Below are positions 73-41,996 of a stretch of DNA of 64,000 bases, piece by piece. Both the position numbers and the translations under genes were made by a program. Source of the stretch: Planctomycetota bacterium (GTDB lineage: Bacteria > Planctomycetota > UBA8108 > SXIK01); assembly GCA_965223265.1 (NCBI GenBank), contig OZ244999.1:2720001-2784000 (forward strand), written 5' to 3'. The first letter of the stretch is position 1. Each line of letters begins with the position of its first letter. The notes beneath the pieces were generated by a model. The model was not told the origin of the DNA, searched no databases, and saw only the letters and a list, made by a program, of their open reading frames with translations.

Positions 73-1854
73 TCATTGACACGTCGTGCGCTCACACCCA
101 AGACTCGCTCCAGGTTCGGGGTCCGCGCCGCAGTTTGGATGCGGCGCTGGTGGGACCTCGCTGCCAGCGAGGAAAAGAAAGTTGAAGATGAAGACGGCGT
201 CGGCGATATCGCTCGAAGCATCGTCGTTGGCATTGCATGCCTCGACGCAAGAGGGTAGCTCGGAACCGGCGACGAACAGTGCGTTGAGGTGAAAGATGCC
301 GTCGGAGATGTCGAGGAAGAGGTCGCCGTTGCAGTCGCCACGGAGGAACGCCGAGTTGTCTTTCTGGTTGCCGAAATTGATACCTTCGACGATTTCTCCG
401 GATGCGAGTTTGACGACATGGGCACCACTCGTTGGTGCCTGCGGCGTCGGAAACGTCTGCCGAAAGCCATCAGGGGCGACTTCGCGGACGGTGTGAGTCC
501 CAGGCTGAACGTTCAACCAGTAAAGTCCAGTTTCGTCGAAAGCGGTGACTGGGCTGTCGTCCATGGTGATGGTCAACGGCTCGCCGGCGTCGAGGATTCC
601 ATTGTCGTTGAAGTCGAGAAAGATGGTGACGCCGGCGAGGCCAGGCTCGTTCTGATCACGCCGGCCGTTACCGTTACGATCGAGCCACTTGACGCCGTGA
701 ACGCTTGCGGGCTGGACTTCGTGGTTGCCAAAGTTGAGCCCCTCGACGACGACGCCCGAGGCAAGAACGACGCTATGAAAACCATTCACTGGGAACGTCT
801 GTGCGAAGCCGTCGGGAACAACTTCGCGTATGGTGTAGGTCCCGGGCTGCGCTTCGAGCCAGTAGAGTCCCGACTCGTCGAACTGAGTGTTGGGATTGTC
901 GGTCATGGAGACGGCCGATGGTTCGGCAGCGTCGAGGAAGCCGTTGTCGTTGAGGTCGAGGTAGATGGTGACGCCGGCCAGGCCAGGCTCGTTCTGATCA
1001 CGCCGACCGTTACCGTCGCGGTCGAGCCACTTGACGCCGTGGACGCTTGCGGGCTGGACCTCGTGGTTGCCAAAGTCGAGCCCCTCGACGACGACGCCGG
1101 AGGCAAGAACGACGCTATGAAAACCATTTGCCGGGAACGTCTGTATAAAGCCGTTGGGAACAACCTCGCGGATGGTGTAGGCTCCGGGCTGCGCTTCGAG
1201 CCAATAGAGACCGGTCTCGTCGAACTGAGTGTTGGGATTGTCGGTCATGGAGACGGCCGATGGTTCGGCAGCGTCGAGGAAGCCGTTGTCGTTGAGGTCG
1301 AGGTAGATGGTGACGCCAGCCAGGCCAGGCTCGTTCTGATCACGCTGGGCGTTTCCGTTACGGTCAAGCCACTTGACGCCGTGAACACTGGCCGGTTCGA
1401 TCTTCTGAAGTCCGAAGTTGATACCCCGAACGTTCGTTCCCGCACTGACTTTGATAAGATGGGCGCCACCGTTACTGGTCGGAAATGTTTGACTGAACCC
1501 GTCAGGAACGATTTCCCGCACGACGAAAGTTCCTGGCCCGGTAACGAACTGAAAGATTCCAGTTTCGTCAACGCCGGTCGACGGATCGTCGGACAAGCTG
1601 TTGATGGCCGGCTCGCCTCGGTCGAGAAAGCCGTTCTCGTTCAGATCGAGGTAGACGACGACGCCCGCAAGGCCTGGTTCATTCGCGTCACGATTTCCGT
1701 CACCGTTGGCGTCCGACCACACGGAGCCGCGTATGCTTTCACTCGGAAGTCCGCCGAGCAAGACTCGTCGATCCTGAACGGGGTGTCGTGACACCATCGG
1801 TTCGAAGAATATACAGACCAGCGTGATCGACAGAACGAGCGCCGTGCGGTTCAT
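73..1854 (-). CDS. Secreted SdrD B-like repeat protein (4 repeats) with C-terminal Cys-rich dockerin-like tag
   Basis: Signal-peptide-like N-terminus and GGAGG RBS. Four ~114-aa repeats of G.KW.D.NGNG.RD.NEPGLAGVTIYLD.N.NG..D..EP...YTIREV.P.GF.QT.P. C-terminus FLRGDCNGD..LDISD...C..ACNANDD..SDIAD...FLF...PP.P.P.CG. Confidence 0.9.
   Translation of the reverse strand: MNRTALVLSITLVCIFFEPMVSRHPVQDRRVLLGGLPSESIRGSVWSDANGDGNRDANEPGLAGVVVYLDLNENGFLDRGEPAINSLSDDPSTGVDETGIFQFVTGPGTFVVREIVPDGFSQTFPTSNGGAHLIKVSAGTNVRGINFGLQKIEPASVHGVKWLDRNGNAQRDQNEPGLAGVTIYLDLNDNGFLDAAEPSAVSMTDNPNTQFDETGLYWLEAQPGAYTIREVVPNGFIQTFPANGFHSVVLASGVVVEGLDFGNHEVQPASVHGVKWLDRDGNGRRDQNEPGLAGVTIYLDLNDNGFLDAAEPSAVSMTDNPNTQFDESGLYWLEAQPGTYTIREVVPDGFAQTFPVNGFHSVVLASGVVVEGLNFGNHEVQPASVHGVKWLDRNGNGRRDQNEPGLAGVTIFLDFNDNGILDAGEPLTITMDDSPVTAFDETGLYWLNVQPGTHTVREVAPDGFRQTFPTPQAPTSGAHVVKLASGEIVEGINFGNQKDNSAFLRGDCNGDLFLDISDGIFHLNALFVAGSELPSCVEACNANDDASSDIADAVFIFNFLFLAGSEVPPAPHPNCGADPEPGASLGCERTTCQ
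352..1737 (-). repeat. Intragenic tandem repeat, ~342-nt unit
   Basis: GGGCTGCGCTTCGAGCCA occurs at 844 and 1186 (342 nt apart). An ~100-nt identical block lies at about 876-975 and 1218-1317. Outer limits are approximate. Confidence 0.85.
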
Positions 1855-2172
1855 GATGCACCTCCTGATCGCACGCGCTCGGAGCGGCGCGAACAGGGGA
1901 GGTGTTCACACCGTGCCTTGGAACGTCCGACCTCGATCCCTAAAATGCCTCGCCACCCTAACGGACGACGATGCCTCTTTTTCCCTACGTTACGCCCCTA
2001 ATATATCAACCCCGGGAGTTTTCGCCTCGTCAATTGTAGCTGATCGGATGTCGTGACGCGGAGCGGCAGGCACCCAAAGTAGCAGACACACTCCTTGTGT
2101 TCTTTTGGCTGCGAAGCGCAGAGCGCGCCCGCTACTTCGAACGAAGCTTCGCGGGTAGCGAAAAGTGTGCCT

Positions 2173-3609: not shown

Positions 3610-6600
3610 TTGAAACTTGAACACACTTGCGCCGCTCATGAGCTGCGAGGAAGATGGAGGCAATCTTCTGCGCTATTCCCTTTGTCTTTTTGCGCTCCTC
3701 TGATTTCCGTGCTCAGAACGTACACACTCGTCGCGCTTGTTTGGCTCTTCACGCCCGCCCTGATGGCGCAGGAGTTGGTGATCTCGGAGTTTCTAGCCTC
3801 GAACCAAGGCGGGCTTCGAGACGAAGACGGCGACAGCGCAGACTGGGTCGAACTCTTCAACCCCGGCGCCAACGCAGTCGACCTCGCCGGTTGGGCGCTG
3901 ACGGATGATCGGGCAGCGCTTCGCAAATGGGTTTTTCCGGCGCGCCAGATTGGACCGCGACAGCACCTCCTCGTCTTCGCGTCCGGCAAAGACCGAGCAC
4001 CGGATACCGGCGAGCTGCACACGAACTTTCAGCTGCAGTCAGGCGGGGAGTATCTGGGGCTCGTGTCTCCCACCGCTACGGTTGTGCACGAATACGCTCC
4101 CGAGTTTCGCCCGCAGAGGGAGAACATCTCGTACGGCCTCGCGGCGCGAGACCTCTCGCTGCTGCCAAGCGATGCAGCGGTCACTTGGCACGTTCCTTCG
4201 GATGGCACGCTCGACGCCGTCTGGATGCTACCCGAGTTTGATGACTCGGCCTGGTTTGAGGGCGCTCTACCTGTTGGGTTCGAGTCGGAGACTCCAAACG
4301 CCGCCAATTTCTACGCTGCCGTGATCGCTGACGAACCTGAACTCGCGGCGTACTGGCGGTGCGGCGACAGCGACACTGTCGTGCGCGACGAATTGAGGCG
4401 GCGCCAGGGCGAGTACGTCGGCGATTTCTCGCTCGGAGCTCCTGGTGCGATCATTGGTGACGACGACACAGCCGTCGATTTCGTCGTCGGCTCGGTCGTG
4501 TTTCCACCGGAGCCGCCCTTGCGTCTGACCGAGGCCTCCTTCAGCATCGAAGCGTGGGTGCAGCCGGATCTGAGTGGCCCGTTCCAGTGGATTGCGTCGA
4601 GAGACGACAGCCTGTCTCTCGTTGACTACATGGTCGGGTTTTCTCCCAGCGGCCGCGTGCGCTTCGTAACGCAGGGCGGACGCAACACGCTCAACACGGA
4701 GGCGCTGACTCTGGATGGTGAGCAGTGGTACCACATCGTCGCCGTGCAGGATGCTGCCGCGAGGACGAAGACGATTTACGTCAACGGCGAAGTCGCTGGG
4801 CAGCGCGAGCTCGGGGTCGGGTTACCACCGACCTCGCTCGAGAACGGTCTTCGTCTTGGCGCACGTTCGGATCGCGGCGGTCGCCAGCACCTAGATGGAC
4901 GTCTGGACGAAGTCGCGCTGTACCGGCGTGCGTTGACGGAGACCGAAGTGCGACGTCATTTCGATCTCGCTTCGACGCCTAGAGGCTTCGAGCCGCTCAT
5001 CGCGACGAATCTGCGTGCCGCAATGAGAAATCAAAACTCCTCAGTTTATCTGCGCATCCCATTCGACTTGAACACTCAGCACTCGCTCGACACCCTCGAG
5101 CTGCAAGTGCGCTACGACGACGGCTTCATCGCCTATCTCAACGGAGTGGAAGTGGCGAAGCGCAATGCGGATCTGGCCGTGTGGAATGCCGCTGCCAACA
5201 CTGATCGCCCGAAGCGGGCGAGCCTGCGCGCTGAGGTCATTGATCTGTTGGGCGCGCGCGAGCTCTTGCGTCCGGGCGGAAACGTTGTCGCGATTCACGG
5301 CTTCAATGACGCCGTTGACGGCAGCGATTTCATCGTTTCGGCGCGGCTGGACGCACGCACGGTGCCGGTACCTGGGTATTTTCCGGAGGTGACGCCGGGA
5401 CGCACAAACTCTGCGAACTTCGTCGACTTCGTCGGTGACACGAGATTTAGCCGCGATCGAGGCTTCTACGACGAAACGTTCGAGGTTGTGATCAGCACGT
5501 CGACGCCGGAGGCCGTCATTCGCTACACAACGAATGGGTCTCCACCCATGGCGGACACTGGTCAAGTGTACGACGGTCCGATTTTGATCGACCGTACGAC
5601 CATCCTGCGAGCTGCTGCGTTCAAGGGTGGATACATTCCGACGAATGTCGACACGCACACTTACATTTTTCTTGATGACGTCCTTGTCCAGGATGGGAGC
5701 GCTGCCCCGGCGACCTGGGGCCCGACTCCGGCGGACTACGCCATGGATGCGACAGTCGTCAACGACCCGCGGTACTCGGGGCAGTTCCGTGACGCACTCA
5801 CAGCCCTGCCAACGTTGTCGATCGTCATGCCGCAGGCCGATCTTTTCGGTGCTGATGGCATCTATTCCAACCCGACGCGAACCGGAATCGTTTGGGAGCG
5901 TGCGGCGTCCGTCGAGTACTTCGGTGACGGCGCGGCGGGATCATTTCAAGTCGACGCCGGTGCCCGCATGCACGGCGGCAGCAGTCGGCGGCCGGACATC
6001 ACACCGCAGCATTCTCTGCGTCTGCACTTTCGCGGCGAGTACGGCACCCCGCGTCTGAATTTCCCGCTGTTTCCGGATTCTGACGTCGAGAGCTTCGACA
6101 CACTCGTGGTGAGCGCGAGCTCGAGCGACAATTGGACGAGTGCCAACACCGCGACCGGAGCCGTGGCGCAGTTCATCCGTGACCAGTGGGCACGGGACGT
6201 GCAGCGACAGATGGGGCACGAGTGGGTGCCAGGTCGTTTCGTGCACCTCTACCTCAATGGGCTCTATTGGGGGCTCTACAATCTTGTCGAGCGCGTCGAC
6301 GATGGGTTTGCTTCGACGCACTTTGGTGGCGAGAAACTTGAATATGATGTCATCGTCGACGGCGAAACGAGAAGCGGCAATTCGATCGCTTGGCGAGAGC
6401 TGCTCAGCAGCGCACGTGCGGCAGACTTCGATGCGGTGTCCAGGCTTTTAGATGTGGACAACTTCATCGACTACATGCTGATCAACATGTTCACAGGCAA
6501 CTGGGACTGGCCCGATCACAACTGGGCCGCGATCCGTCGCCGCGTACCCGATGGTCGATTTCGTTTTCCGGTGTGGGATGCCGAAGTCGGCCTTGGCCTC

Positions 6601-8094
6601 GACGTCAATGTTCCTGGCCCGATCGTCGCCAATGTTCTGGACGTCGATTTGACTGGAGAGCGCGCGGACGTCGCCAGCTCTGATGTGGCCAACGGTCCAG
6701 GTGAGATCTACAACCGACTCCGTGGAGATCCTGAGTTTCGCTTGTGGTTCGCGGATCGGCTGCAAGAGCATCTCGTCGGTGACGGCGCTCTGGCTGCAGA
6801 ACAGGCCACTGCGCTTTACGAGGTGCGCGCCGGTGAAATCGAAACCGCACTTCTCGGCGAGTCGGCGCGTTGGGGCGACGTGCGTCGCACGCCGCCAGAC
6901 GTGCCGGACGGGCGCTGGCTCACTGAGCGGCGGTGGATTGTCGACACGTTTTTTCCCGCACGACCGTCGATCGTGCTGGAGCAGTTTCGGCGTCACGATC
7001 TCTTTCCAGCAGTGGCTGCGCCGCTCTTCAATCATCCCGGTGGTGTCGTCGACGCAGGTTTTGCTTGGCGGGCTTCGACTGCGTCAGGAGGAGACGGCAG
7101 GATTTTCTACACGCTCGACGGCGCCGACCCTCGACGTATTGGTGGCGGCGTCTCGGGGGCTGCCCTGGCGTTTGACGTCTCAGGCGAGCAGCCGCTCAGG
7201 CGGACAACAAGGATCAAGGCCCGTACGCTTCAGAGCGGCGTTTGGAGTGCCGCGAACTCCGCGACGTACTACGTTAGCACTCCGGCCCTTCGCATCTCGG
7301 AACTCATGTACCATCCTCTCGAGCGGATCGACGAAAGCGAGTTCGACAGCGACGAGTTCGAATTCATCGAGCTGCTGAACATCGGGCCGCAGCCGATCAA
7401 TCTGACGGGCGTGCGTTTCACCGCGGGAATTGACTTCGTGTTCCCTGAGGAGCCTCACCCGGACGCCGACTTGGCGCCCGGCGAGGTCGTGCTCGTCGTG
7501 CGCAATTTCGAGGCGTTTGCCAGTCGTTATGACACGACAGGGCTCTATGTCGCGGGCGAGTTCACCGGCAACCTGGCGAACAACGGCGAGCGGGTCGCGC
7601 TGCACGATGCGACGGATCGAATCGTCTTTGAGTTCACCTATGACGATGCATGGTTTCCGGCGACGGATGGCGGCGGTCGCTCGTTGGTGCCTGACGAGGT
7701 GAGCGGTGATTCGGTCATGCTACGTGAGCGGTCCGGATGGCGTGCGGGTGCGGAGACCGGCGGTTCACCCGGAGTTGTCGAAGGTGAGAGCATCCTCGAC
7801 GGCTTCCAGCTGCCTGGCGATGTGAATCAAAGCGGCACGCTCGACCACTCTGATGCGATTTCACTTTTGAGGTACCTGTTCGCAGAGAACGGCGGTGCGC
7901 TCCCGTGCTTAGGCGGGTCGATGGCATCCCGCGCCAATGTGGCGCTCGCTGACGTCGACGGTAGCGCTCGCGTGAACGTCACGGACGCTATCTATGTACT
8001 GCGCCATCTTTTTGTCGGTGGACCGCCTCCGGCCTTGGGTACAGAGTGCGTGCCGCTCGCCGGGTGTCCCTCAATTTGCGCGGGCGCTCAGTAG
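3610..8094 (+). CDS. Lamin-tail / jelly-roll / LamG / Fn3-associated / CotH kinase / lamin-tail protein with C-terminal dockerin-like tag
   Basis: LTD motifs VISEFLASN...DWVELFN and ISELMYHP...EFIEL. LamG motifs FSIEAWV...WYHIVAV...LDEVALY. IRYTTNGS.P and IFYTLDGADP. CotH motifs HLYLNGLYWGLYNLVER, NWDWPDHNW, WDAE. QLPGDVN tail. The true start may be somewhat downstream. Confidence 0.9.
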   Translation: MKLEHTCAAHELRGRWRQSSALFPLSFCAPLISVLRTYTLVALVWLFTPALMAQELVISEFLASNQGGLRDEDGDSADWVELFNPGANAVDLAGWALTDDRAALRKWVFPARQIGPRQHLLVFASGKDRAPDTGELHTNFQLQSGGEYLGLVSPTATVVHEYAPEFRPQRENISYGLAARDLSLLPSDAAVTWHVPSDGTLDAVWMLPEFDDSAWFEGALPVGFESETPNAANFYAAVIADEPELAAYWRCGDSDTVVRDELRRRQGEYVGDFSLGAPGAIIGDDDTAVDFVVGSVVFPPEPPLRLTEASFSIEAWVQPDLSGPFQWIASRDDSLSLVDYMVGFSPSGRVRFVTQGGRNTLNTEALTLDGEQWYHIVAVQDAAARTKTIYVNGEVAGQRELGVGLPPTSLENGLRLGARSDRGGRQHLDGRLDEVALYRRALTETEVRRHFDLASTPRGFEPLIATNLRAAMRNQNSSVYLRIPFDLNTQHSLDTLELQVRYDDGFIAYLNGVEVAKRNADLAVWNAAANTDRPKRASLRAEVIDLLGARELLRPGGNVVAIHGFNDAVDGSDFIVSARLDARTVPVPGYFPEVTPGRTNSANFVDFVGDTRFSRDRGFYDETFEVVISTSTPEAVIRYTTNGSPPMADTGQVYDGPILIDRTTILRAAAFKGGYIPTNVDTHTYIFLDDVLVQDGSAAPATWGPTPADYAMDATVVNDPRYSGQFRDALTALPTLSIVMPQADLFGADGIYSNPTRTGIVWERAASVEYFGDGAAGSFQVDAGARMHGGSSRRPDITPQHSLRLHFRGEYGTPRLNFPLFPDSDVESFDTLVVSASSSDNWTSANTATGAVAQFIRDQWARDVQRQMGHEWVPGRFVHLYLNGLYWGLYNLVERVDDGFASTHFGGEKLEYDVIVDGETRSGNSIAWRELLSSARAADFDAVSRLLDVDNFIDYMLINMFTGNWDWPDHNWAAIRRRVPDGRFRFPVWDAEVGLGLDVNVPGPIVANVLDVDLTGERADVASSDVANGPGEIYNRLRGDPEFRLWFADRLQEHLVGDGALAAEQATALYEVRAGEIETALLGESARWGDVRRTPPDVPDGRWLTERRWIVDTFFPARPSIVLEQFRRHDLFPAVAAPLFNHPGGVVDAGFAWRASTASGGDGRIFYTLDGADPRRIGGGVSGAALAFDVSGEQPLRRTTRIKARTLQSGVWSAANSATYYVSTPALRISELMYHPLERIDESEFDSDEFEFIELLNIGPQPINLTGVRFTAGIDFVFPEEPHPDADLAPGEVVLVVRNFEAFASRYDTTGLYVAGEFTGNLANNGERVALHDATDRIVFEFTYDDAWFPATDGGGRSLVPDEVSGDSVMLRERSGWRAGAETGGSPGVVEGESILDGFQLPGDVNQSGTLDHSDAISLLRYLFAENGGALPCLGGSMASRANVALADVDGSARVNVTDAIYVLRHLFVGGPPPALGTECVPLAGCPSICAGAQ

Positions 8095-8412
8095 GACGCA
8101 GTTTTCGGTGAAGTGTCGGGACTTCGTAACCGGCTTTCGGTCCTGGACTCGCCTGTCGAGCGTCTGACGGCTTGCGGTCACGGACGCCTCTCGTAGTCGG
8201 AGTGAAATCACCGCTCAGGCTTCGGGCTCCACCGCCGCACGAAGAACGCCGCATGTCCATAGCAGCCCTGTGCGCCATGGGGACACCTCGCCACCGAGTT
8301 CTCGGGGCAGGCGCGGTTCCGAACAGCGTTTCATCGATTGTGGAGCGTTTATCGTCGAGTCAACGACGAGTCGTCGAACGCTCGGAACTCGACCAATTGG
8401 AAGGGGGTCAGC

Positions 8413-11169
8413 ATGTCACTCCGTCAGACTGTCAAGCACAACAAGTCTGTGGTCGCTCGCGCTGTGGCGCTCGGATCGGACTCGGGATTCTGTCCATCGC
8501 TCCGCCGACGCCGCACGAGCTTGTTCTTCCTTGGGCTCGTGTGCACGTTGACGTTGAACGCGTCAGCGCAGGAATCTTTTGTTCGTGGCGATATCAACGG
8601 TGACGGTGGCGTCGATGGCGCTTCAGATTTCGTCCAACTGCTCGGCATCTGGTCAAGTGCCTTCCCGGAGGCTTCCATGAGCAACTGTATCGGCGCGCGC
8701 GAGATAGAGGTGGGAGATGTGAACGACAACGAGTCCTTTGGACTCGGCGACCTCATGAGCTTCGGCTATGCGTTCTTTGAAGGTGGCCCGACGTATCCGC
8801 CGCTGTTTGGTTGTGGTGCCGACCCCACGGACACAACGCGCGGTTTCGACGAAGCGGATACCGACTACGTTCTTGCGATGCCGTGCATCACTTCGACGGA
8901 CGACAAAGTCGAGATCCCGGTGTTCCTCAAGTCGCCGCAAGACGTTCAAGGTATCAGCTTCGCTCTTCGCATCGGTGAGAACATGGTGCCTCAGGAAGAT
9001 CGACTCGCTCAGTTCGACTCCACGGTGAATCTGGATCCTGCGACGTCGGTCAATTGGCAAATCCTGGAAGACGATGTTTTGTCGATTCACATCGGGAAAT
9101 TCACCGACTTCGCGGGCGAGCCGGTACTCGCGGGGACGAACGGTGAGTTCGTCAAGATTGGGACGTTGCGCTTCGCGCTCGTTGATCCGCCAACCGAAGC
9201 TTCCTTTGAGTGGCTTCCAGACTTCACGCTCAATACTTTCCCGATGCGTGCGACGGTTGCCACGGTGAGTGAGGTTGGGGCTCCGGTCGTGGACCATCAC
9301 CCGCTATTCACGACGAATCCTGATGTCTGCACGGATTGCTGCGTGTCGCAGGATTTTATCCGCGGCGATGTCAGCGGGGATGGAAGCGTCGATATCCAGG
9401 ACTTGGTCGCTTTCCTCAACGCTCTGTCGTCTCCAGCGAGTCCGTTGGCGAACACGTGCGGCCCGAGTCTTGAGGGAGCCGACGTCAACGACAACGAGTT
9501 TCTCAGCTTCAACGATGTGCTGCTGATCGGCGGCATTCAGTTTGGTGGCCTTCCGGTGCCGCTGTCAGAGCCCCATGTGTGTGGCCCTGATCCGACGGAC
9601 ACGACACGCGGCTTCGACCAGGTCGACCCTCGCTTCGAGGTCTCCATACCATGTATCTCACGCAGCGGCACCGAGCTCTCGATCCCTATCGACGTTCAGA
9701 GTCCGACTTCGATTCAAACGGTCAGCTTTGCACTTCGAGTCTCGCCCAATATCGTGCCGTCGCCGGGTCAGGAGCTTCTCACCCTCAATCCCTCGATCGA
9801 TGAGTCGACCCTCGCCTCGGCGAGGTTTCACGACGACCTTATAGTTGTCGACGTTGCCGGCGAGTACACTGTCGCGACGACGAACGGAATCCTTCCGCCA
9901 ACGGGCGCGACGCCGACGCATCTCGGCACTTTGCGCCTCGCCCTCGTCGACCCCGAAGGCGACGCGTCGATCGAGTGGGTGCCCGACTTCGAGATTCATG
10001 GGATTCCTCTACGCGCCACGGTTGTCAGCGGCCTGGACTCCCCAGAGCCGTTTGAGGATCATCATCCCAGTTTTTCGAGAACTGACGCCGAGTGTGCCGG
10101 CCTGTCGCTGTTCCGCCGTGGCGATCATGACGGTTCGGGTGCGGTGGATCTAGCAGACGGTAACGAGATCCTTGCTTTCCTCGCGTCCGGCAGCGCCGCC
10201 CCCGAGAACTGCGTGGGCGAGGTCGATCTCGATGTTCCCGACGTCAACGACAACGAGCACGTTACCATCGGCGATTTCCTCAAGCTGCGGAGTTCTCTCT
10301 CCGGGTCCTCGCTTGAGCTCTCGAACCTCTGCGGTCGGGATCCGACCAACGACCCTCGCGGATTCGATGCAGCGGATTCTGACTACGTGCTGACGGCTTC
10401 GCGTGTCCAGGTGATCCTGCCGCCGCCGCCTGCGAATCAAAACGAAAACCGCGACGTTTGGATCCCGTTGAGCTTGATCGCGCCCGGGCCGGTCACCGGG
10501 CTGCAGCTCATGATCGAGTACGATCCTCGAGCGTTGACGCCTCTGGGAGACGCCGAAGGCGGTGTTCTCTTGACGAGCTTCGGCGACAGCTTTTCGCGCG
10601 TCGTGCCGGTGGGGCCTAGCCTGTCGATTCTTATCGTCAGCCTCTATGCTGCTGAGGATGGGAGCTTCGTCGTGTCGGATGACACGGGCGGCGCCTTCTT
10701 TCCCGTCGGGACGCTCCGCTTCCACTTAACGGATAATGCAGTTTTTCGACCTCTTCTTTGGCGCGACGAGCTCTCCCTGCCAGGCGAGGATCTACGCTAC
10801 CACGCCTCCGTCGTCGACGCAGAGTTCGACGACCACCGTCCACTTCTGCGCACCGGCGAGTTCGAGTTCGTCCGCGGCAACGCTAACTCGGACGCCCAAG
10901 TCGATATCTCCGACGGCATCTTCACGCTCAACTTCCTCTTCGACGAGTCGCTCAACGAGGACTTTCCGAACTGTTTTGCCGCGATGGACGTGAACAACGA
11001 CGAGGTATTGGATATTTCCGATCCGATCTTTCAGCTCAACTTTCTCTTCGCCAACGGCCCTGTCATACCGCAGCCGTTTCCTCAGTGCGGCCTCGACCGC
11101 GGCGGAATCCCCATCTTCTCGTGCAATCCGCCGGTGGAAGAAGACGCCTGTTTTGACCCGAGTTCGTGA
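8413..11169 (+). CDS. Putative scaffoldin-like secreted protein: 3x(dockerin-like + cohesin-like) + terminal dockerin-like domain
   Basis: AAGGGGG RBS before ATG 8413, and a hydrophobic signal ending ASA-Q. F.RGD/N units start at 8578, 9355, 10111 and 10867. The intervening beta-rich units read V.IP..L.....V.G..F/L.....GTLRF.L. Confidence 0.7.
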   Translation: MSLRQTVKHNKSVVARAVALGSDSGFCPSLRRRRTSLFFLGLVCTLTLNASAQESFVRGDINGDGGVDGASDFVQLLGIWSSAFPEASMSNCIGAREIEVGDVNDNESFGLGDLMSFGYAFFEGGPTYPPLFGCGADPTDTTRGFDEADTDYVLAMPCITSTDDKVEIPVFLKSPQDVQGISFALRIGENMVPQEDRLAQFDSTVNLDPATSVNWQILEDDVLSIHIGKFTDFAGEPVLAGTNGEFVKIGTLRFALVDPPTEASFEWLPDFTLNTFPMRATVATVSEVGAPVVDHHPLFTTNPDVCTDCCVSQDFIRGDVSGDGSVDIQDLVAFLNALSSPASPLANTCGPSLEGADVNDNEFLSFNDVLLIGGIQFGGLPVPLSEPHVCGPDPTDTTRGFDQVDPRFEVSIPCISRSGTELSIPIDVQSPTSIQTVSFALRVSPNIVPSPGQELLTLNPSIDESTLASARFHDDLIVVDVAGEYTVATTNGILPPTGATPTHLGTLRLALVDPEGDASIEWVPDFEIHGIPLRATVVSGLDSPEPFEDHHPSFSRTDAECAGLSLFRRGDHDGSGAVDLADGNEILAFLASGSAAPENCVGEVDLDVPDVNDNEHVTIGDFLKLRSSLSGSSLELSNLCGRDPTNDPRGFDAADSDYVLTASRVQVILPPPPANQNENRDVWIPLSLIAPGPVTGLQLMIEYDPRALTPLGDAEGGVLLTSFGDSFSRVVPVGPSLSILIVSLYAAEDGSFVVSDDTGGAFFPVGTLRFHLTDNAVFRPLLWRDELSLPGEDLRYHASVVDAEFDDHRPLLRTGEFEFVRGNANSDAQVDISDGIFTLNFLFDESLNEDFPNCFAAMDVNNDEVLDISDPIFQLNFLFANGPVIPQPFPQCGLDRGGIPIFSCNPPVEEDACFDPSS

Positions 11170-11377: not shown

Positions 11378-12955
11378 CTAAGGTCGAGTCGGGCCAAGTT
11401 TGATGACGGAAGCGTTCGCGTGGGTCGCGACGTTCAAGGCCACGTTTGTGCCGTAGTAGAAGAGAATCGAGGTGCCCATCACCGAACCCGTCAGCGAGGA
11501 TCCAACATCCATGTTGAGAGTCGCCTTGCTGAAACCGTCCACATCGATGTTTGCACTCCCGATCGGGTGAGAGTCACCGAAGTTGAGTTGACTAAGGCCA
11601 ACCACGCTCGCCGTCAAATCGTCAACCTTCAGGGCGTCGCCTCGTAGCTGGCTCACGCCGGCAACGTCGACGCTGAGCTGCGCCTGGTCGAAGCCGTTGA
11701 GAGTGACATCGACAAAACCCTGCAGTTGGAGGGCATCGAGGGCGGGAAGCGTGACAATCGCCTTGAGCGTTTGGATGTCGTGGTCGCCGACGAGCAAACC
11801 CATGTTGAGCCTGGATCCACTCTGCGTGATGTCCAGTTCGTCCACAACTTCCTCGTCGATCGTGATCTCAACTAAGAATTCCGGTGCTTGAGCGACTGTG
11901 ACTTTGAACACACTGAAGACAGACATCTCGGTGAAGTTCTCGAAGTCAAACGTCACTGTCTCAGTCGGCTCGACGAAGCGGCCAAAGAGGATCTCGCTGG
12001 CTAGGATGCTTCGACCGTCGGCGGCGACTCTCCCATCGATCGTGATTTGCACATTAGCTTTGAGGTCACTTACGGCGCCGTTGCCAAAATCAGTGTCGGC
12101 GTCGGTCGTCACCGGAAGGCCGTTGAGGTCGAAGTCGTTCGTCGAGCCAAAGCGCGTGACCCACCCTTGAACCTGAGCCCGCTCGTCCGGAACTCCACCC
12201 GCTGAGTCGTAGAGGCTTTCCAGTTCGTCCGCCAGCAGGATTCCGTTTGCCAAGGTGCCCCTCACGACAACGAGAAGGTCGGCGACCGGTGCGCCGGTCG
12301 GCAGGTCGACGATCGTTGCTGCGCTGTAATCGATACTCAATCCGTTCACGGTGAACAGCATGTTGGAGAGGTCCAATCCGGCGACGCGTCCGATGATCTG
12401 CACACCGACGGTTGCGGTATCGAATTCCACCAACGTTGCGACGATTTCTCCATCGGCGTTCAGAAAACCGCTAACCTGAACGATGGACCCCATGACCAGG
12501 GGCGCAAAGTTGTTCGGATCGAGCCTTGAATCGAACAGGGTCTCCGCATCTGTCAAAACTGTTTGCCCCATGACGACGAGCCGGCCGAGCCCTGCGTCGA
12601 TGCTTTCCACCGGACCGATGACCGTGGCTTGGTACTCGATGAGATCAGTGGTGCCGTTGGCAGCGTTGACTTCGATCGTCCCTTCCAGCGAGACAACCTG
12701 ACCCGGTTTCAGATCGAGGAAGCTTCCAGGCTGCCCGTTGATCGTCACTGTCGTTGCGGGTGTCTCGTAGCGCACTCCGTTGACCGTGACCTCACCCAAC
12801 ACAGCTGTGATCACGCCGGTGGCAGAAATCGGCTCGGTGATGGGCGGCATGGCGGGTGCCGGGGAACTTCCGCTGCTACCTCCACTGCTGCAGGCCCAGA
12901 GTAACGTCAAGCAAAGCAAGCTCAAGTTGGATGCCGGACGGGTGCGAGGGTTCAT
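11378..12955 (-). CDS. Lipoprotein with DUF5666 repeats and C-terminal GIN/DUF2807-like beta-helix
   Basis: Lipobox LWAC and Ser/Gly linker. Repeats of the type GPVESID....LVVMGQTV...T.F...G..V.V.G. Tail FENFTEMSVFSVFKVTVAQ...LDALQLQG...SILFYYG. Confidence 0.75.
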   Translation of the reverse strand: MNPRTRPASNLSLLCLTLLWACSSGGSSGSSPAPAMPPITEPISATGVITAVLGEVTVNGVRYETPATTVTINGQPGSFLDLKPGQVVSLEGTIEVNAANGTTDLIEYQATVIGPVESIDAGLGRLVVMGQTVLTDAETLFDSRLDPNNFAPLVMGSIVQVSGFLNADGEIVATLVEFDTATVGVQIIGRVAGLDLSNMLFTVNGLSIDYSAATIVDLPTGAPVADLLVVVRGTLANGILLADELESLYDSAGGVPDERAQVQGWVTRFGSTNDFDLNGLPVTTDADTDFGNGAVSDLKANVQITIDGRVAADGRSILASEILFGRFVEPTETVTFDFENFTEMSVFSVFKVTVAQAPEFLVEITIDEEVVDELDITQSGSRLNMGLLVGDHDIQTLKAIVTLPALDALQLQGFVDVTLNGFDQAQLSVDVAGVSQLRGDALKVDDLTASVVGLSQLNFGDSHPIGSANIDVDGFSKATLNMDVGSSLTGSVMGTSILFYYGTNVALNVATHANASVIKLGPTRP

Positions 12956-38443: not shown

Positions 38444-41400
38444 TTAGTCGCATGCGAACCGCTCGCATGCTAGCTCGCTCTCTGCGTCTTCAACACTACC
38501 GCACTCTGGGTACGGTGCGGCAGGCGCGTCGCCGCTGACGAAGAGAAAGTTGATGACGAGGATCGGGTCCGAGATGTCTTCGCCCAGGTCGCCGTTGGCG
38601 TCGCAGGCCGCTGGGCAATCGGAAGCCGCGCCGCTGGCAAAGAGCGCGTTGAGATGGTTGATCGCGTCGGAGATGTCGACGAAGCGGTCGCCGTTACAGT
38701 CGCCGCGAAGGAACTGCGGCACCTCCTCGCTGGGCGGCTCGACCTCGCGACCGCGGATGGCGCCGACCTGCTCGTCTGCAAACAGGCGCTCGTTCATCGA
38801 TAGGTCGATGTCCGTCTCCGTGATTGTGTGTTCGGTGAAACCGTACGCCTTGGTACCTTCACTGACGGCGGTCCAGTTGTAGCCGAGATCGGGATCGTCG
38901 AGCTTGGGGCCGGAGCGCGGCTGTGCGTAACGCGTCAGCATGTTTCGGCTCGCGTCGTATTCGAGTCGCCCTTCCAGCGGCAGCTTTTGATAGAGGACTG
39001 CCGCTTGACCGGCAGGTAGATCCAGTCCGAAAAAGGAGCTCGAGACGCCAGCCACCAAGATGCCGTCCTCGATGACGTCGACGCCGGTGAAGGATTCGTT
39101 GAAGATCCCAGAGAACGTCGTCATCCACTGGACGCCGAAGTTAGAGTCGATCTGAACCGCGATTGCGTCGGTCGCGTTTCCAAGGCCCGTACTACCGACG
39201 ATCACAGCGCCGCCCGGGACCGGGGCCACCGCATAGCCCGTGTCGTAGGCCGTTGCGTCGCTCGGGTTGCCGACGTACGTGTCTTGATCACGGTCGTTGA
39301 TGCTGTCGAGGTGAAGTTCCCATTGCTCGTCGACGCTGATGATGACGTTGTCGCCGTCGCCAGTCTCAAGGTCCAGCTGGGCGACCCAAATCGCGGCGTG
39401 CCCTTCGGAGACTGTGGGCTGGACGTTGCCACACGCCCACACCTTGCCTTCTGGACTCGATGTGACGGAGTAGAACGCGCCGCCGCGGTAGTTCTGCATG
39501 AGCGAGCGCCAGATCGCGCTGCCGTCCGGAGCGATGCGAAAGACCAGGCCCTGCTCCTCCCACGGATCTTCGCTGGCGAGTCTAAACTTCCTCCAGCCGC
39601 ACACGAGCAAGCTGCCGTCCGCGAGCGCCGTGGCGTCTGTGGGAACGTCTGCGTTCGGGGCACCATACTGTTTCGCCCACAGAAGTTCGCCGACCTCGTC
39701 GAAGCGGAGGATGAACGGCTCGCGGTCGAAGATCGATTCATGCGTGACGAAACCGATGATCGAGAGAGCTACACCGCCTTGTCCGTCGGGGCCCGCCGCA
39801 AAGTCAACGGGAGTCCAGAACGAACCGATTTCGAATGCGCGGTGCCACAGCAAATTGCCGTCGCCATCGTACTCGGCGACCCAGACGGTCTTGCCGGCGT
39901 AGCCGCCTGCGAAGATGCGGCCGCCCGGAAGCTCGATGGCGTCGAGAAGCGTCGAATAGCCGGTGCGTCGTTGCCAGATCACACCTCCTTCGCGTTCGAC
40001 GCGCGCAAGTTGACCGATTCCGCTGCCGCGCACGACGATGAGAGCGTCGCCGTTCTCCAGAGAATGGATGCGAGGTTCGCCTGAGACAGGCCGATCGCCA
40101 TCGCGCAGAGTTGATGCCCAGCGAGCATTCGCGTCATGGACGGACGGTGCTTCCTCGTCGAGCGCGTTTGGATCCAGCGCGAGCCCGCCTCCGCTGCCGC
40201 CGCCAGACGCCGGCCCATGTGATTCCATCGGGAAGTTCCAATCGACCGATTGCGTGCGGTCGAAGTTGATCTTGATGCCGAGGAAGTTCATCTTGAAGCC
40301 AGCTTTTACGCCGGTGACGAGGTCCAGACCGCGCTCCATCTTCCAGGAGCGATCTTTGAGCGGTGTCACGTCAATGCTGCCGTAGCCGGTAGCACGGACG
40401 AACGGCCCCGCCACGCCGTTGATACGGAGCGTCGACTCAACGCCAGCCCACGCCTTCAAGTGGAGCCCGCTGGACTCTTCGACGTGCGGCGCTGTGAACT
40501 CGAAGGGCACATGAGATTCGTAAGGCTCGAAGACGGCTTCTCCGTCAGCGAAACCGATGTAAACACCGATCTTGGCGTTCTGGTTGATACTCGTGGTGCC
40601 GGTTGCGAGGAGCTCCGCTTTGGCCCCAGCCAGAAAGACGATGTCCATCGAGATGGTCACCGGCACGCCACCGACGTAGACGGTGAAGATCGGCAGATTG
40701 ACTGAGTAGAGGTTTTTCTCTGTGCGGGCAGCGGGCGGCCCGATGCGCGACTTGAGCTCCAAACTCGCGGAGTACGACAGTTCGAGGTCAACGACGACAC
40801 GCGTTGGCAGGAGCTTTCGAAAACGGATCTGCACCGACGCGATGCTGGCGCCGAAGCGAATCTCGCCGCTGAGCTTCACGTTGTCGCCGAGATCCAGTTC
40901 GTTGAAGCGGATAGGAAGGCCGCGTGCCTCGCACTCGGTGTACTCCTGGTCCAGAGGGTCCAGAGGATCTTCTTCGGTGTGGGTCTCATCGACGCAGCCG
41001 TCCATCAGTTTCTGAAAATCCTCCAGGGTGAAGGTCTCCCCGAGTTTGGTGCCATAGCCGAGGCCGACTTTCATCGAGCCGGTCTCATAGTCGTCTTCGG
41101 AGAGAGCTTCGCAGACAAGTGTGAGCGGTCCCGACTCGTCCGCAGATTCGTCCTTGCGAACAACTTTCAACGGCAAGATGCTAGCTAAGTGGCCTTCGGC
41201 CTGGAAGCCAGAGGGGTGCGGATCTTCAGCGAAGATGTTTCCCTTGTCGAGCGCGTCGAGGAGGTCTGTCGGGTAGGAAAACCGCAGATGAAAGTAACCA
41301 TCCGAGACTGGTATCTGTCGGTCATAAGCGACTTGCGTAGCAGAGTCGAGATAGCGAGTCGTGCCGGCGTAGACGTTGATTTCTTCTCCAATCACACGAT

Positions 41401-41803
41401 AGGGGATGCGCCCCTCTTCGAGAGCGAACGGCAGCTCGGCGACTTCGTCGGTCGGTGCGTTCACGGTCCAGACGGTGTCCGGGCTCACCGACCCGGTGCT
41501 CGGCACCGACGAGAACGACATTTCATTGTGGATCACCTCGACGCCGCGGCCCGCGCTGCGCAGCTTCGCTTTCGCGCTTGCCCAGACCGCGGGGCCGACA
41601 TTGCTCAGGTCGGCCGCGATGTCGACTTCACTGCGCCGCTGGTTGATTTCCCGCACGGCGACGATGCGGAAGCCGTGCAGGTTGAGCTCGTCGCTGTCGT
41701 CAAGTTGCGGGTTGGTTTGGGCGCGTGCGGGAACGGTTCCCGAAAGTAGAAAAGCTACGAGCGTGAGAAGATAGATGGGCAGAGAGCTCTGGCGCGAGGT
41801 CAT
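38444..41803 (-). CDS. Large secreted protein with beta-rich core, beta-propeller and C-terminal dockerin-like tag
   Basis: Signal peptide ending ARA-Q. Blade motifs G..IWQR, GNLLWHR, GELLWAK.YG, G..IWR, GVQW. FLRGDCNGD..VDISD...C.AACDANGD..EDISD...FLF tail. Confidence 0.85.
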   Translation of the reverse strand: MTSRQSSLPIYLLTLVAFLLSGTVPARAQTNPQLDDSDELNLHGFRIVAVREINQRRSEVDIAADLSNVGPAVWASAKAKLRSAGRGVEVIHNEMSFSSVPSTGSVSPDTVWTVNAPTDEVAELPFALEEGRIPYRVIGEEINVYAGTTRYLDSATQVAYDRQIPVSDGYFHLRFSYPTDLLDALDKGNIFAEDPHPSGFQAEGHLASILPLKVVRKDESADESGPLTLVCEALSEDDYETGSMKVGLGYGTKLGETFTLEDFQKLMDGCVDETHTEEDPLDPLDQEYTECEARGLPIRFNELDLGDNVKLSGEIRFGASIASVQIRFRKLLPTRVVVDLELSYSASLELKSRIGPPAARTEKNLYSVNLPIFTVYVGGVPVTISMDIVFLAGAKAELLATGTTSINQNAKIGVYIGFADGEAVFEPYESHVPFEFTAPHVEESSGLHLKAWAGVESTLRINGVAGPFVRATGYGSIDVTPLKDRSWKMERGLDLVTGVKAGFKMNFLGIKINFDRTQSVDWNFPMESHGPASGGGSGGGLALDPNALDEEAPSVHDANARWASTLRDGDRPVSGEPRIHSLENGDALIVVRGSGIGQLARVEREGGVIWQRRTGYSTLLDAIELPGGRIFAGGYAGKTVWVAEYDGDGNLLWHRAFEIGSFWTPVDFAAGPDGQGGVALSIIGFVTHESIFDREPFILRFDEVGELLWAKQYGAPNADVPTDATALADGSLLVCGWRKFRLASEDPWEEQGLVFRIAPDGSAIWRSLMQNYRGGAFYSVTSSPEGKVWACGNVQPTVSEGHAAIWVAQLDLETGDGDNVIISVDEQWELHLDSINDRDQDTYVGNPSDATAYDTGYAVAPVPGGAVIVGSTGLGNATDAIAVQIDSNFGVQWMTTFSGIFNESFTGVDVIEDGILVAGVSSSFFGLDLPAGQAAVLYQKLPLEGRLEYDASRNMLTRYAQPRSGPKLDDPDLGYNWTAVSEGTKAYGFTEHTITETDIDLSMNERLFADEQVGAIRGREVEPPSEEVPQFLRGDCNGDRFVDISDAINHLNALFASGAASDCPAACDANGDLGEDISDPILVINFLFVSGDAPAAPYPECGSVEDAESELACERFACD

Positions 41804-41996
41804 GACTCTTCCTTTCGCCGGCAACCGGCGTGGGGGCTGGTGGGGCCTTTCGCCCCTTTGGGTGGGTTATTCAGCCAAGGAAGAAGTCGGTGCTCGGTTC
41901 AGACCTCCGAATTTTGGAAAAAGGAGTCGCCCAGCGGCTGAGCCTGGCTGCGGTCATCACGGATTCCCTGGCGGCACACGACGTTGGGGCGCGGCG

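Follow-up and report, generated by a model that had tools for sequence, protein, structure and literature searches.

Gene and module organization

An open reading frame occupies positions 8338..11169 on the forward strand of the window (the whole stretch of 64 000 nucleotides that was analysed). Its start was assigned to the ATG at 8413, with the Shine–Dalgarno-like sequence GGAAGGGGG lying 5 nt upstream, giving a gene that encodes 918 amino acids plus a stop codon. The product is a secreted, enzyme-free chain in which dockerins strictly alternate with cohesins (Table 1). In the putative signal peptide an RRRR n-region is followed by a hydrophobic core and a cleavage-like site (ASA-Q); a lipobox was absent from residues 1–53 when the translation was read by eye. 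No cell-anchoring module was visible in the 918-residue protein, which ends in a short cysteine-rich tail after dockerin 4. All Pfam and NCBIfam matches were sub-threshold dockerin and EF-hand matches and no catalytic domain was found with these libraries, in agreement with the preliminary description of this DNA. Scanning for promoters and terminators gave counts at the level of shuffled sequence and was uninformative. The stretch was present in four DNA runs of one study, and no RNA run was among the sequencing runs listed.

Table 1. Features of the alternating gene and of its upstream neighbour (window coordinates).
Feature	Residues	Position	Strand	Remarks
Whole gene		8413..11169	+	Signal peptide, (dockerin–cohesin)×3, terminal dockerin; from ORF list, translation and custom-HMM module map
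Putative N-terminal signal peptide	1–53	8413..8571	+	Read from the translation
Dockerin 1, internal type	54–133	8572..8811	+	Two 12-residue Ca loops, the second DVNDNE....D; Cys92
Cohesin 1, a-type	134–312	8812..9348	+	Starts with dockerin tail CG.DPT..RGFD; AF2, Foldseek, VIA
Dockerin 2, internal type	313–389	9349..9579	+	Sole Pfam Dockerin_1 match of the protein, 14.3 bits (below cut-off)
Cohesin 2, a-type	390–564	9580..10104	+	Profile E 1e-48; tree sister of cohesin 1
Dockerin 3, internal type	565–639	10105..10329	+	Custom HMM; model pLDDT 90–94, two helices, one after each Ca loop
Cohesin 3, b-type	640–816	10330..10860	+	Profile E 2e-54; VIA Z 12.6 to 6kgc_A
Dockerin 4, terminal (cargo) type	817–904	10861..11124	+	Conserved Cys brace; alignment, VIA
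Upstream co-oriented gene, candidate client	1494 aa	3610..8094	+	Two lamin tail domains, LamG, CHB_HEX_C, CotH, C-terminal dockerin (Pfam)

The motif F.RGD/N occurs at residues 56, 315, 567 and 819 (spacings of 259, 252 and 252), the second calcium loop at 102, 357, 610 and 859 (DVNDNE in three modules, DVNNDE in the last), CG.DPT at 134, 390 and 640, and DH[HR]P at 294, 549 and 807. These positions, together with the identity of units 2 and 3 to unit 1 (41 and 34%, respectively), confirm the three motif-bearing units of 252–259 residues that had been described. Chance does not account for the repeats: the three beta modules gave E values of 2e-54 to 3e-48 with the family profile, of which they are themselves part. 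CG.DPT, which had been taken for a linker, is instead the C-terminal tail of the dockerins of this lineage, the stand-alone terminal dockerins of which share the ending G.DPT.D..L.C.

Cohesin and dockerin modules

The beta sandwiches had been called cohesin-like, and as far as the fold is concerned the structural comparisons uphold this. An AF2 model of cohesin 1 (pLDDT 88, pTM 0.85) was compared with the PDB using Foldseek, a check proposed in the preliminary description, and gave 57 matches at E ≤ 1e-3 with cohesins at the top (4ums, 1e-5; 1ohz, 6e-5). With VIA-align, ranks 1–20 for the same model were all cohesins (Z = 12.4–8.4, r.m.s.d. 2.5–4.7 Å over 121–148 residues), the best being 6kgc_A (Z = 12.4) and 1ohz_A (Z = 12.1); the comparison of cohesin 3 with 6kgc_A (Table 1) confirmed this outcome. 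The models are nine-stranded flattened beta-sandwiches (jelly-rolls) that can be superposed on solved cohesins, at a sequence identity of 7–16%, and by structure prediction the beta units thus have the cohesin fold.

Pfam Cohesin (PF00963) had no match anywhere on the protein at E ≤ 1, and the family profile found three matches in all in the PDB at E ≤ 10, every one of them a cohesin and none significant (E = 0.58–1.4). Homologous modules of the relatives P0041 and P0044 reached 18.8 and 22.6 bits against the Pfam Cohesin cut-off of 24.1, and more distant alternating relatives exceeded it (P0005, 36.4 bits; P0013, 38.4 bits; P0007, 27.6 bits). The missing Pfam match would also suit Ig-like or CBM-like sandwiches that bind polysaccharide or another ligand, which would make the protein a calcium-dependent adhesin; jelly-roll CBM and adhesin domains are indeed found further down the ranking (3ndy_E, Z = 8.0; 2okm_A, Z = 7.7; 1exg_A, Z = 6.6). 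We regard this as very improbable, given that cohesins fill the first 20 ranks with Z values of up to 12.4 against at most 8.0 for any other fold, that the modules of relatives approach or pass the Pfam cut-off and that the beta modules are always flanked by dockerins. The unrelated Ig or CBM fold that had been named as the refuting case was therefore not encountered.

All four dockerins contain two 12-residue EF-hand-like calcium loops, and AF2 places a helix behind each loop (H16–28 and H55–65 in dockerin 3, H268–279 and H305–315 in dockerin 4). A cysteine pair, for instance C600 and C640, is conserved in these dockerins. None reached the gathering score of Pfam Dockerin (PF00404; cut-off 22.9 bits), dockerin 2 coming closest. 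This is a detection limit; profiles of the lineage and of the internal type reach solved dockerins, and scores of up to 97 bits occur among the relatives. In the PDB the family dockerin profile ranked solved dockerins (E = 3e-6 to 1e-3; 5m2s_B, 3e-6; 3ul4_B, 4e-6) above EF-hand proteins, and a profile built from internal-type modules only reached E = 1.9e-4, with 11 of its 12 matches at E ≤ 0.01 being dockerins. Dockerin 4 was superposed by VIA-align on 5m2o_B (Z = 10.2, r.m.s.d. 1.9 Å over 72 residues), 4fl4_A (Z = 9.1) and 2ccl_B (Z = 8.6). Dockerin 3 has no separate row in the structural list of the three-module model because the cohesin and dockerin 4 occupy that list. By structure prediction the terminal helical module thus has the dockerin fold, and the internal modules are, judged by their profiles, dockerin relatives, as had been proposed for the EF-hand pairs.

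The assignment of the fourth dockerin to the cargo type likewise holds: its identity is 41–45% to the dockerins at the C-termini of three relatives, compared with 24–34% to internal ones. For dockerins, Slutzki et al. (2013; PMC3821032) describe an intramolecular clasp of an N-terminal aromatic residue with a C-terminal proline; in the sequence here, a Phe three residues before the conserved Gly (F.RG) is conserved, as is a C-terminal Pro. The NCBIfam GC-type dockerin model NF041540 gave 14.6 bits against a cut-off of 29, and so the protein was not filed under it. The main text of PMC5590126 gave no match to the term 'internal dockerin'.

Family, junctions and genome context

A search of 1.84 billion representatives with the beta unit returned 17 proteins at E ≤ 1e-3 (query counted). 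The family is small and comes from Planctomycetota MAGs, its members being publicly called 'hypothetical protein' or carrying no name. As a lead only, the nearest clusters in a protein atlas also consist of 'hypothetical proteins' of Planctomycetota without a name; a minority of their members have Dockerin or Cohesin Pfam matches. Among 27 mapped proteins, 20 have a detected cohesin directly between two dockerins and eight are complete (Doc–Coh)2–Doc chains; the strict alternation noted in the preliminary description is therefore kept across the family. The layout, (internal dockerin–cohesin)n–terminal dockerin, is conserved, with n usually 2 in the relatives and 3 in the present protein. Cohesins 1 and 2 are sisters in the tree (support 98/95), and cohesin 3 groups with the sole cohesin of P0056 and the second (last) cohesins of P0041 and P0044 (support 98/97). 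As read from the sequences, n = 3 arose by duplication of the first unit.

The HMM envelopes of adjoining modules abut or overlap, which leaves no linkers between the modules. A three-module AF2 model (pTM 0.80) has a pLDDT of 82–88 across the dockerin-to-cohesin junction and of 69–78 at the junction from the cohesin to dockerin 4. In an 18-row alignment the invariant residues cluster in the second loop of the internal dockerin (D.NDNE....D) and at the junctions (C, D and F of CG.DP...GFD; DH.P; F.RG). Since they are short, conserved and confidently modelled, the junctions give room for packing in cis that could block the sockets. Each internal dockerin might then be permanently packed on the neighbouring cohesin, a case that the preliminary description had named as refuting its reading. 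The chain would be a rigid spacer or fibre stiffened by calcium, with the terminal dockerin as the sole free interaction module of a protein that is itself cargo and not scaffold. The abutting envelopes, the placement of the invariant residues, the confident model and the duplication of dockerin plus cohesin together as a unit are all consistent with such an arrangement. A high pTM, however, denotes a defined arrangement and not the occupation of a binding face, the confidence is weaker at the junction with dockerin 4, and the retention of three complete cohesin folds merely as spacers seems costly; we consider permanent packing in cis to be unlikely.

The genome-wide count of cohesins and dockerins that had been suggested was carried out. 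About 354 dockerin domains were found in 333 of 56 268 frames, 272 of them within 60 residues of the frame end, most being C-terminal tags. An iterative profile that had not converged matched, by sequence only, at least 73 cohesin-like modules; these lie in 41 frames, and 39 of the frames contain a dockerin as well. With the family dockerin HMM, a score of 65 bits was obtained for the dockerin encoded by the adjoining gene 3610..8094; its product, the lamin-tail/CotH protein, has no Pfam cohesin. A dockerin-bearing upstream neighbour was seen here and at one related locus (L022), not at two others (L020 and L021). Conserved synteny with an LTD/CotH gene was ruled out, as the neighbours at L020 and L021 differ (ChaN-like, FHA, S8 peptidase), and for most of the genome's paralogous alternating genes no dockerin gene lies within 5 kb.

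Speculatively, the protein could also, as the preliminary description had suggested, polymerize with itself into a branched lattice. Its terminal and/or internal dockerins would bind the cohesins of other copies, with four plugs and three sockets per chain, and a putative branched calcium-dependent extracellular polymer or surface matrix would recruit tagged cargo. Both partner types are present in each chain and their alternation is kept across the family; 39 of the 41 cohesin-bearing frames also carry a dockerin, as would fit scaffold chains; and because the terminal dockerin matches the type of the genome's cargo tags, any cohesin that accepts cargo could accept another copy. An experimental precedent is given in PMC4611034, where the cohesin of Ruminococcus bromii Amy4 binds the protein's own dockerin and multimerization is proposed. 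Against this, the internal dockerins form a separate subtype whose residues differ at the usual recognition positions and so do not necessarily fit the cohesins of this protein, which are themselves of two subtypes, and an uncontrolled secreted polymer would need regulation, of which no sign is visible. On balance, we give the lattice a small chance of being correct. More doubtful still is its most elaborate form, a natural self-assembling polymer in which the D.NDNE dockerins of the internal type and those of the terminal type would each recognize one cohesin subtype on other copies, so that the chains daisy-chain and branch into a calcium-dependent lattice (a surface coat or matrix) bearing hundreds of dockerin-tagged enzymes.

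Proposed role and comparison with known systems

Our tentative preference is for a secreted, non-catalytic adaptor scaffold within a planctomycete cohesin–dockerin network, the binding being inferred. Cohesins bind dockerins in a Ca2+-dependent manner via their 8-3-6-5 face. With Ca2+ present, the three cohesins would be the sockets into which secreted proteins insert their C-terminal, cysteine-braced dockerins of the terminal type, the lamin-tail/CotH protein of the adjoining gene being a possible client. The terminal dockerin would plug the whole chain into a cohesin of another scaffold protein, and docking sites would thereby be multiplied as with the adaptor scaffoldins of cellulosomes. 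The internal dockerins form a subtype of their own in which the D.NDNE loop is invariant; probably joined rigidly to the next cohesin, they may act as connectors stiffened by calcium and possibly also as plugs with a second specificity. The presence of two cohesin subtypes (1 and 2 versus 3) suggests two client specificities. In this manner the adaptor probably helps to connect the several hundred dockerin-tagged secreted proteins of the genome. A predicted complex of cohesin 1, the terminal dockerin and two Ca ions scored 0.05/0.02 against a mark of 0.32 and speaks neither for nor against binding.

Among natural protein 'plugs and sockets' the cohesin–dockerin pair is the best known, and it is in wide use in synthetic biology; its roles outside cellulolytic Firmicutes are, to our knowledge, almost unknown. 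The layout of this gene and its family, a single chain with rigid joints in which sockets and plugs strictly alternate and the internal plugs are of a dedicated subtype, was not found described in the literature searched. The host genome encodes about 350 dockerin-tagged secreted proteins, and nearly all of its cohesin-bearing proteins bear dockerins too. Mapping of the binding partners would reveal how the very large secreted proteome of a planctomycete is organized, would directly test the planctosome idea and could yield new orthogonal cohesin–dockerin pairs, perhaps even a natural self-assembling scaffold.

Two tandem-cohesin proteins of the same genome (G000:3163859-3167734 and 4090498-4092531) share the terminal-type dockerin, which follows five and three cohesin-like modules, respectively (iterative profile). 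Unlike the alternating protein, they have the classical tandem layout without internal dockerins, and their modules, matched by sequence profile only, are too distant from the present cohesins for the profile of the latter (E = 2.1). The combination of cohesin and dockerin in one polypeptide is shared with R. bromii Amy4 (amylosome) and with proteins of Archaeoglobus fulgidus, the non-cellulosomal cohesin of which (2xdh) is among the VIA-align matches of cohesin 1 (Z = 10.1). Amy4 differs in combining a catalytic GH13 module with a single cohesin and a single dockerin, and it has no repeated alternation or specialised internal dockerin subtype.

The 'planctosome' proposed for freshwater Nemodlikiaceae comprises, in the model of Andrei et al. 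(2019; PMC6461901), a Doc–HYR–Coh adaptor with one module of each kind, an LTD 'anchoring' protein with a cohesin and dockerin-bearing peptidase clients. The fit to this model, with which the preliminary description had drawn a comparison, is loose. A non-cellulolytic system of Planctomycetes with a dockerin-plus-cohesin adaptor and a lamin-tail-domain protein is common to both; the (Doc–Coh)3–Doc chain, however, lacks HYR, and its LTD neighbour carries a dockerin instead of a cohesin.

Cohesin–dockerin pairs assemble cellulosomes in other bacteria, and cellulosomal scaffoldins carry their cohesins on long flexible linkers together with at most one dockerin. The present protein, with four dockerins and abutting modules, departs from that classical pattern. 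Its closer counterparts are adaptor scaffoldins, in which, according to PMC11557425, docking sites are multiplied by several cohesins together with a terminal dockerin for insertion into another scaffoldin; the same source assigns an adaptor role to cohesin and dockerin in one protein. As in the ScaA/ScaB-type adaptor scaffoldins of Acetivibrio cellulolyticus and Pseudobacteroides cellulosolvens, the chain is non-catalytic, has several (here three) cohesins and a terminal dockerin, and is secreted, the latter as read from the signal peptide. The cohesin fold is common to both, with the ScaB cohesins 4ums and 5nrk among the PDB matches. Unlike these scaffoldins, the protein has no CBM or cellulolytic context and belongs to a planctomycete host; it places a dockerin ahead of every cohesin, joins its modules by short conserved junctions in place of long flexible linkers, and has a conserved cysteine pair in its dockerins.

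Cohesin and dockerin modules of the protein

The ATG at window position 8413, the start given in the preliminary description, is preceded by a Shine–Dalgarno-like GGAAGGGGG ending 5 nt before it, and the product comprises 918 aa. All of the sequence elements listed earlier for the alternating protein were recovered by a motif scan (see the table), with spacings of 259, 252 and 252 between the F.RGD/N motifs; identity to unit 1 is 41% for unit 2 and 34% for unit 3. The N-terminus reads as a putative signal peptide (RRRR n-region, hydrophobic core, ASA-Q site), and a lipobox is absent from this signal sequence. Pfam and NCBIfam gave dockerin and EF-hand matches only, all sub-threshold; neither a cohesin nor a catalytic domain was found with these libraries.

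Coordinates of features in the window and of cohesin-like frames elsewhere in the genome
Feature	Position	Strand	Remarks
ORF containing the studied gene	8338..11169	+	
F.RGD/N	aa 56, 315, 567, 819		motif scan
Second calcium loop	aa 102, 357, 610 (DVNDNE), 859 (DVNNDE)		motif scan
CG.DPT	aa 134, 390, 640		motif scan
DH[HR]P	aa 294, 549, 807		motif scan
LTD/CotH protein, 1494 aa, secreted	3610-8094	+	two lamin tail domains, LamG_3, CHB_HEX_C/Fn3_assoc, CotH kinase-like, C-terminal dockerin
SdrD_B-repeat protein	76-1905	-	dockerin-terminated
1126-aa protein	38447-41866	-	dockerin-terminated
Convergent downstream gene	11378-12955	-	four DUF5666 repeats, DUF2807 (adhesin head GIN); lipoprotein-signal-like N-terminus
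Giant ORF, 3355 aa	52479-62546	+	mostly TPR repeats
1292-aa frame	G000:C1:3163859-3167734	+	five tandem cohesin-like modules, one terminal dockerin
Tandem frame	G000:C1:4547203-4549164	-	tandem cohesin-like modules, one terminal dockerin
Tandem frame	G000:C1:4879447-4881651	-	tandem cohesin-like modules, one terminal dockerin
Tandem frame	G000:C1:4542167-4544653	-	tandem cohesin-like modules, one terminal dockerin
678-aa frame	4090498-4092531		tandem cohesin-like modules, dockerin (iterative profile)
Cohesin-like frame	G000:C1:3876097-3877062	+	no dockerin
Cohesin-like frame	G000:C1:572938-574458	+	no dockerin

Beta unit 1 was searched with phmmer against 1.84 billion representatives; 17 proteins, counting the query protein, matched at E ≤ 1e-3. 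The three beta modules of the window were aligned with 14 from phmmer-found proteins (alignment A2); at E ≤ 10 the resulting profile matched three PDB sequences, all cohesins (E 0.58–1.4, none significant). AlphaFold2 run on this alignment reached pLDDT 88 and pTM 0.85. The Foldseek comparison suggested in the preliminary description was carried out on the beta-unit model and returned 57 PDB matches at E ≤ 1e-3 with cohesins at the top, and VIA-align, run against all representatives, placed cohesins at ranks 1–20 (Z 12.4–8.4); cohesin 3, folded within a larger construct, gave Z 12.6. By their modelled fold the beta units are cohesins, as had been proposed. That they are instead non-cohesin adhesin domains of CBM or Ig type is very improbable because cohesins lead these structure searches, the first non-cohesin following at Z 8.0.

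The helical units are identified as dockerins by profile, and dockerin 4 by modelled fold as well. When 14 dockerin modules were combined into a profile (A3), it matched dockerins of solved structure with E values from 3e-6 to 1e-3, ranked above generic EF-hand proteins, the best match being 8x39, described as a cellulosomal double-dockerin module; a second profile restricted to 15 internal modules (A6) gave 12 matches at E ≤ 0.01, 11 of them dockerins. In a three-module model (aa 565–905; pLDDT 85, pTM 0.80) the dockerin 4 portion could be superposed on 5m2o_B (Z 10.2, 1.9 Å over 72 aa), 4fl4_A (Z 9.1) and 2ccl_B (Z 8.6), in agreement with the earlier assignment of the EF-hand-type pairs. Two subtypes exist, internal and terminal. 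The second loop, D.NDNE....D, is invariant in the internal dockerins, and dockerin 4 shares 41–45% identity with C-terminal dockerins in relatives versus 24–34% with internal ones. Its alignment with 15 other terminal dockerins (A4) reveals shared D.SDPI..L..LF helices, a pair of invariant Cys residues and a tail of the form G.DPT.D..L.C, which upholds the assignment of dockerin 4 to a separate terminal (cargo) type. Since terminal dockerins end in this tail too, the CG.DPT segment formerly called a linker is the dockerin's own tail. An 'intramolecular clasp' has been reported for dockerins (PMC3821032), and the conserved Phe of F.RG and a C-terminal Pro would fit as a candidate clasp pair.

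Family, descent and module junctions

Our own HMMs were applied to 27 proteins (24 obtained by searching, plus three ORFs at loci of Planctomycetota or uncultured MAGs). A detected cohesin is directly flanked by dockerins on both sides in 20 of these, and eight show the full (Doc-Coh)2-Doc layout at a length of about 600–650 aa. Envelopes of neighbouring modules abut or overlap, and the modules are therefore joined without linkers. Three more distant alternating proteins (P0005, P0007, P0013) exceed the Pfam cut-offs for both Cohesin and Dockerin; public names in the family are 'hypothetical protein' or none. Among the phmmer-found relatives, the dockerin–cohesin unit is also fused to a weak alpha/beta-hydrolase (DUF676/PGAP1-like) region in P0042 (943 aa) and to seven FG-GAP repeats in P0054 (707 aa); enzymes or propellers therefore carry it as a cassette, too.

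Maximum-likelihood analysis of 38 cohesin modules pairs cohesin 1 with cohesin 2 as sister branches (support 98/95). This pair is weakly associated with the first cohesins of the homologues P0041 and P0044, whose second cohesins cluster with cohesin 3 and the P0056 cohesin (98/97). By this topology the protein has two cohesin subtypes and descends from a two-unit form through duplication of its first dockerin–cohesin unit. The A2-type module is narrowly distributed: it was found at E ≤ 1e-3 in 20 of 61 relatives' genomes (the own genome, 11 strong, eight weak) and at E ≤ 1e-10 in four of 401 genomes of an even phylum sample (best eight candidates per genome scored), all four from the window's class.

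In the three-module model pLDDT is 90–94 for dockerin 3, 82–88 at the dockerin-to-cohesin junction and 69–78 at the cohesin-to-dockerin-4 junction; in an 18-row alignment the invariant residues lie in the second loop of the internal dockerin and at the module junctions. Together, junction confidence and invariance argue for rigid joints, which would suit either a stiff adaptor with open sockets or a rod locked in cis. The locked rod, with which the conserved, confidently modelled dockerin-to-cohesin junctions are compatible, is considered unlikely; an adaptor scaffold, the reading ranked highest, is tentatively proposed.

Potential partners in the genome

The window sits in a single 9.18-Mb contig. 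Pfam Dockerin_1 has at least 137 matches at E ≤ 0.01 (best 150 of 481 candidates scored) and Pfam Cohesin seven, three above cut-off. With a lineage dockerin HMM, 333 of 56 268 stop-to-stop frames were found to hold a total of 354 domains; 272 of these domains lie no more than 60 aa from the end of their frame, and 13 frames carry more than one. Dockerin-terminated frames of 1780–1960 aa number 39. The A2 profile recovered only the studied gene's three modules, its weak matches concentrating in dockerin-bearing frames. An iterative profile (13 rounds, unconverged) detected 73 cohesin-like modules in 41 frames. Profile drift is disfavoured because 39 of the 41 also carry a dockerin, against the background of 333 in 56 268. 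The tandem frames (3–5 modules by this unconverged profile in those with lower coordinate 3163859, 4547203, 4879447 and 4542167) are classical-looking putative scaffoldins; the two dockerin-free frames are candidates for the cell-bound end of a network. Alternating paralogues lie at four further loci (L023, L025, L028, L029).

Three more window genes terminate in a dockerin, encoding the LTD/LamG/CotH, SdrD_B-like and 1126-aa proteins, the last without a Pfam family at E ≤ 0.001. The LTD/CotH dockerin scores 22.6 bits with Pfam, and the lineage HMM gives it 65 bits. Other genomes encode comparable LTD/CotH/dockerin proteins (P0015, P0032); adjacency of the upstream LTD/CotH gene to the studied gene is not conserved at relatives' loci.

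Folds, alternation, conservation and many potential partners are established; any binding by the protein is inferred. A self-polymerising lattice built of it has a precedent in R. bromii Amy4, whose cohesin binds Amy4's own dockerin (PMC4611034), and is judged rather improbable here.

Comparison with known systems

Full-text searches on the planctosome, on planctomycete or Archaeoglobus fulgidus cohesin–dockerin pairs, on Rhodopirellula dockerins and on alternating cohesins or internal dockerins yielded no description of alternating dockerin–cohesin arrays. The closest known kinds include the adaptor scaffoldins of complex cellulosomes (PMC11557425), the hypothetical 'planctosome' (PMC6461901) and, third, single-chain cohesin-plus-dockerin proteins of the Amy4 type. 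The planctosome model of PMC6461901 has a cohesin borne by an LTD protein, unlike the studied system, and an adaptor with a HYR domain, unlike the studied protein. The protein stands apart in its strict alternation of dockerins and cohesins, its four dockerins of two subtypes, its conserved linker-free junctions, its cysteine brace and its host, a non-cellulolytic planctomycete.
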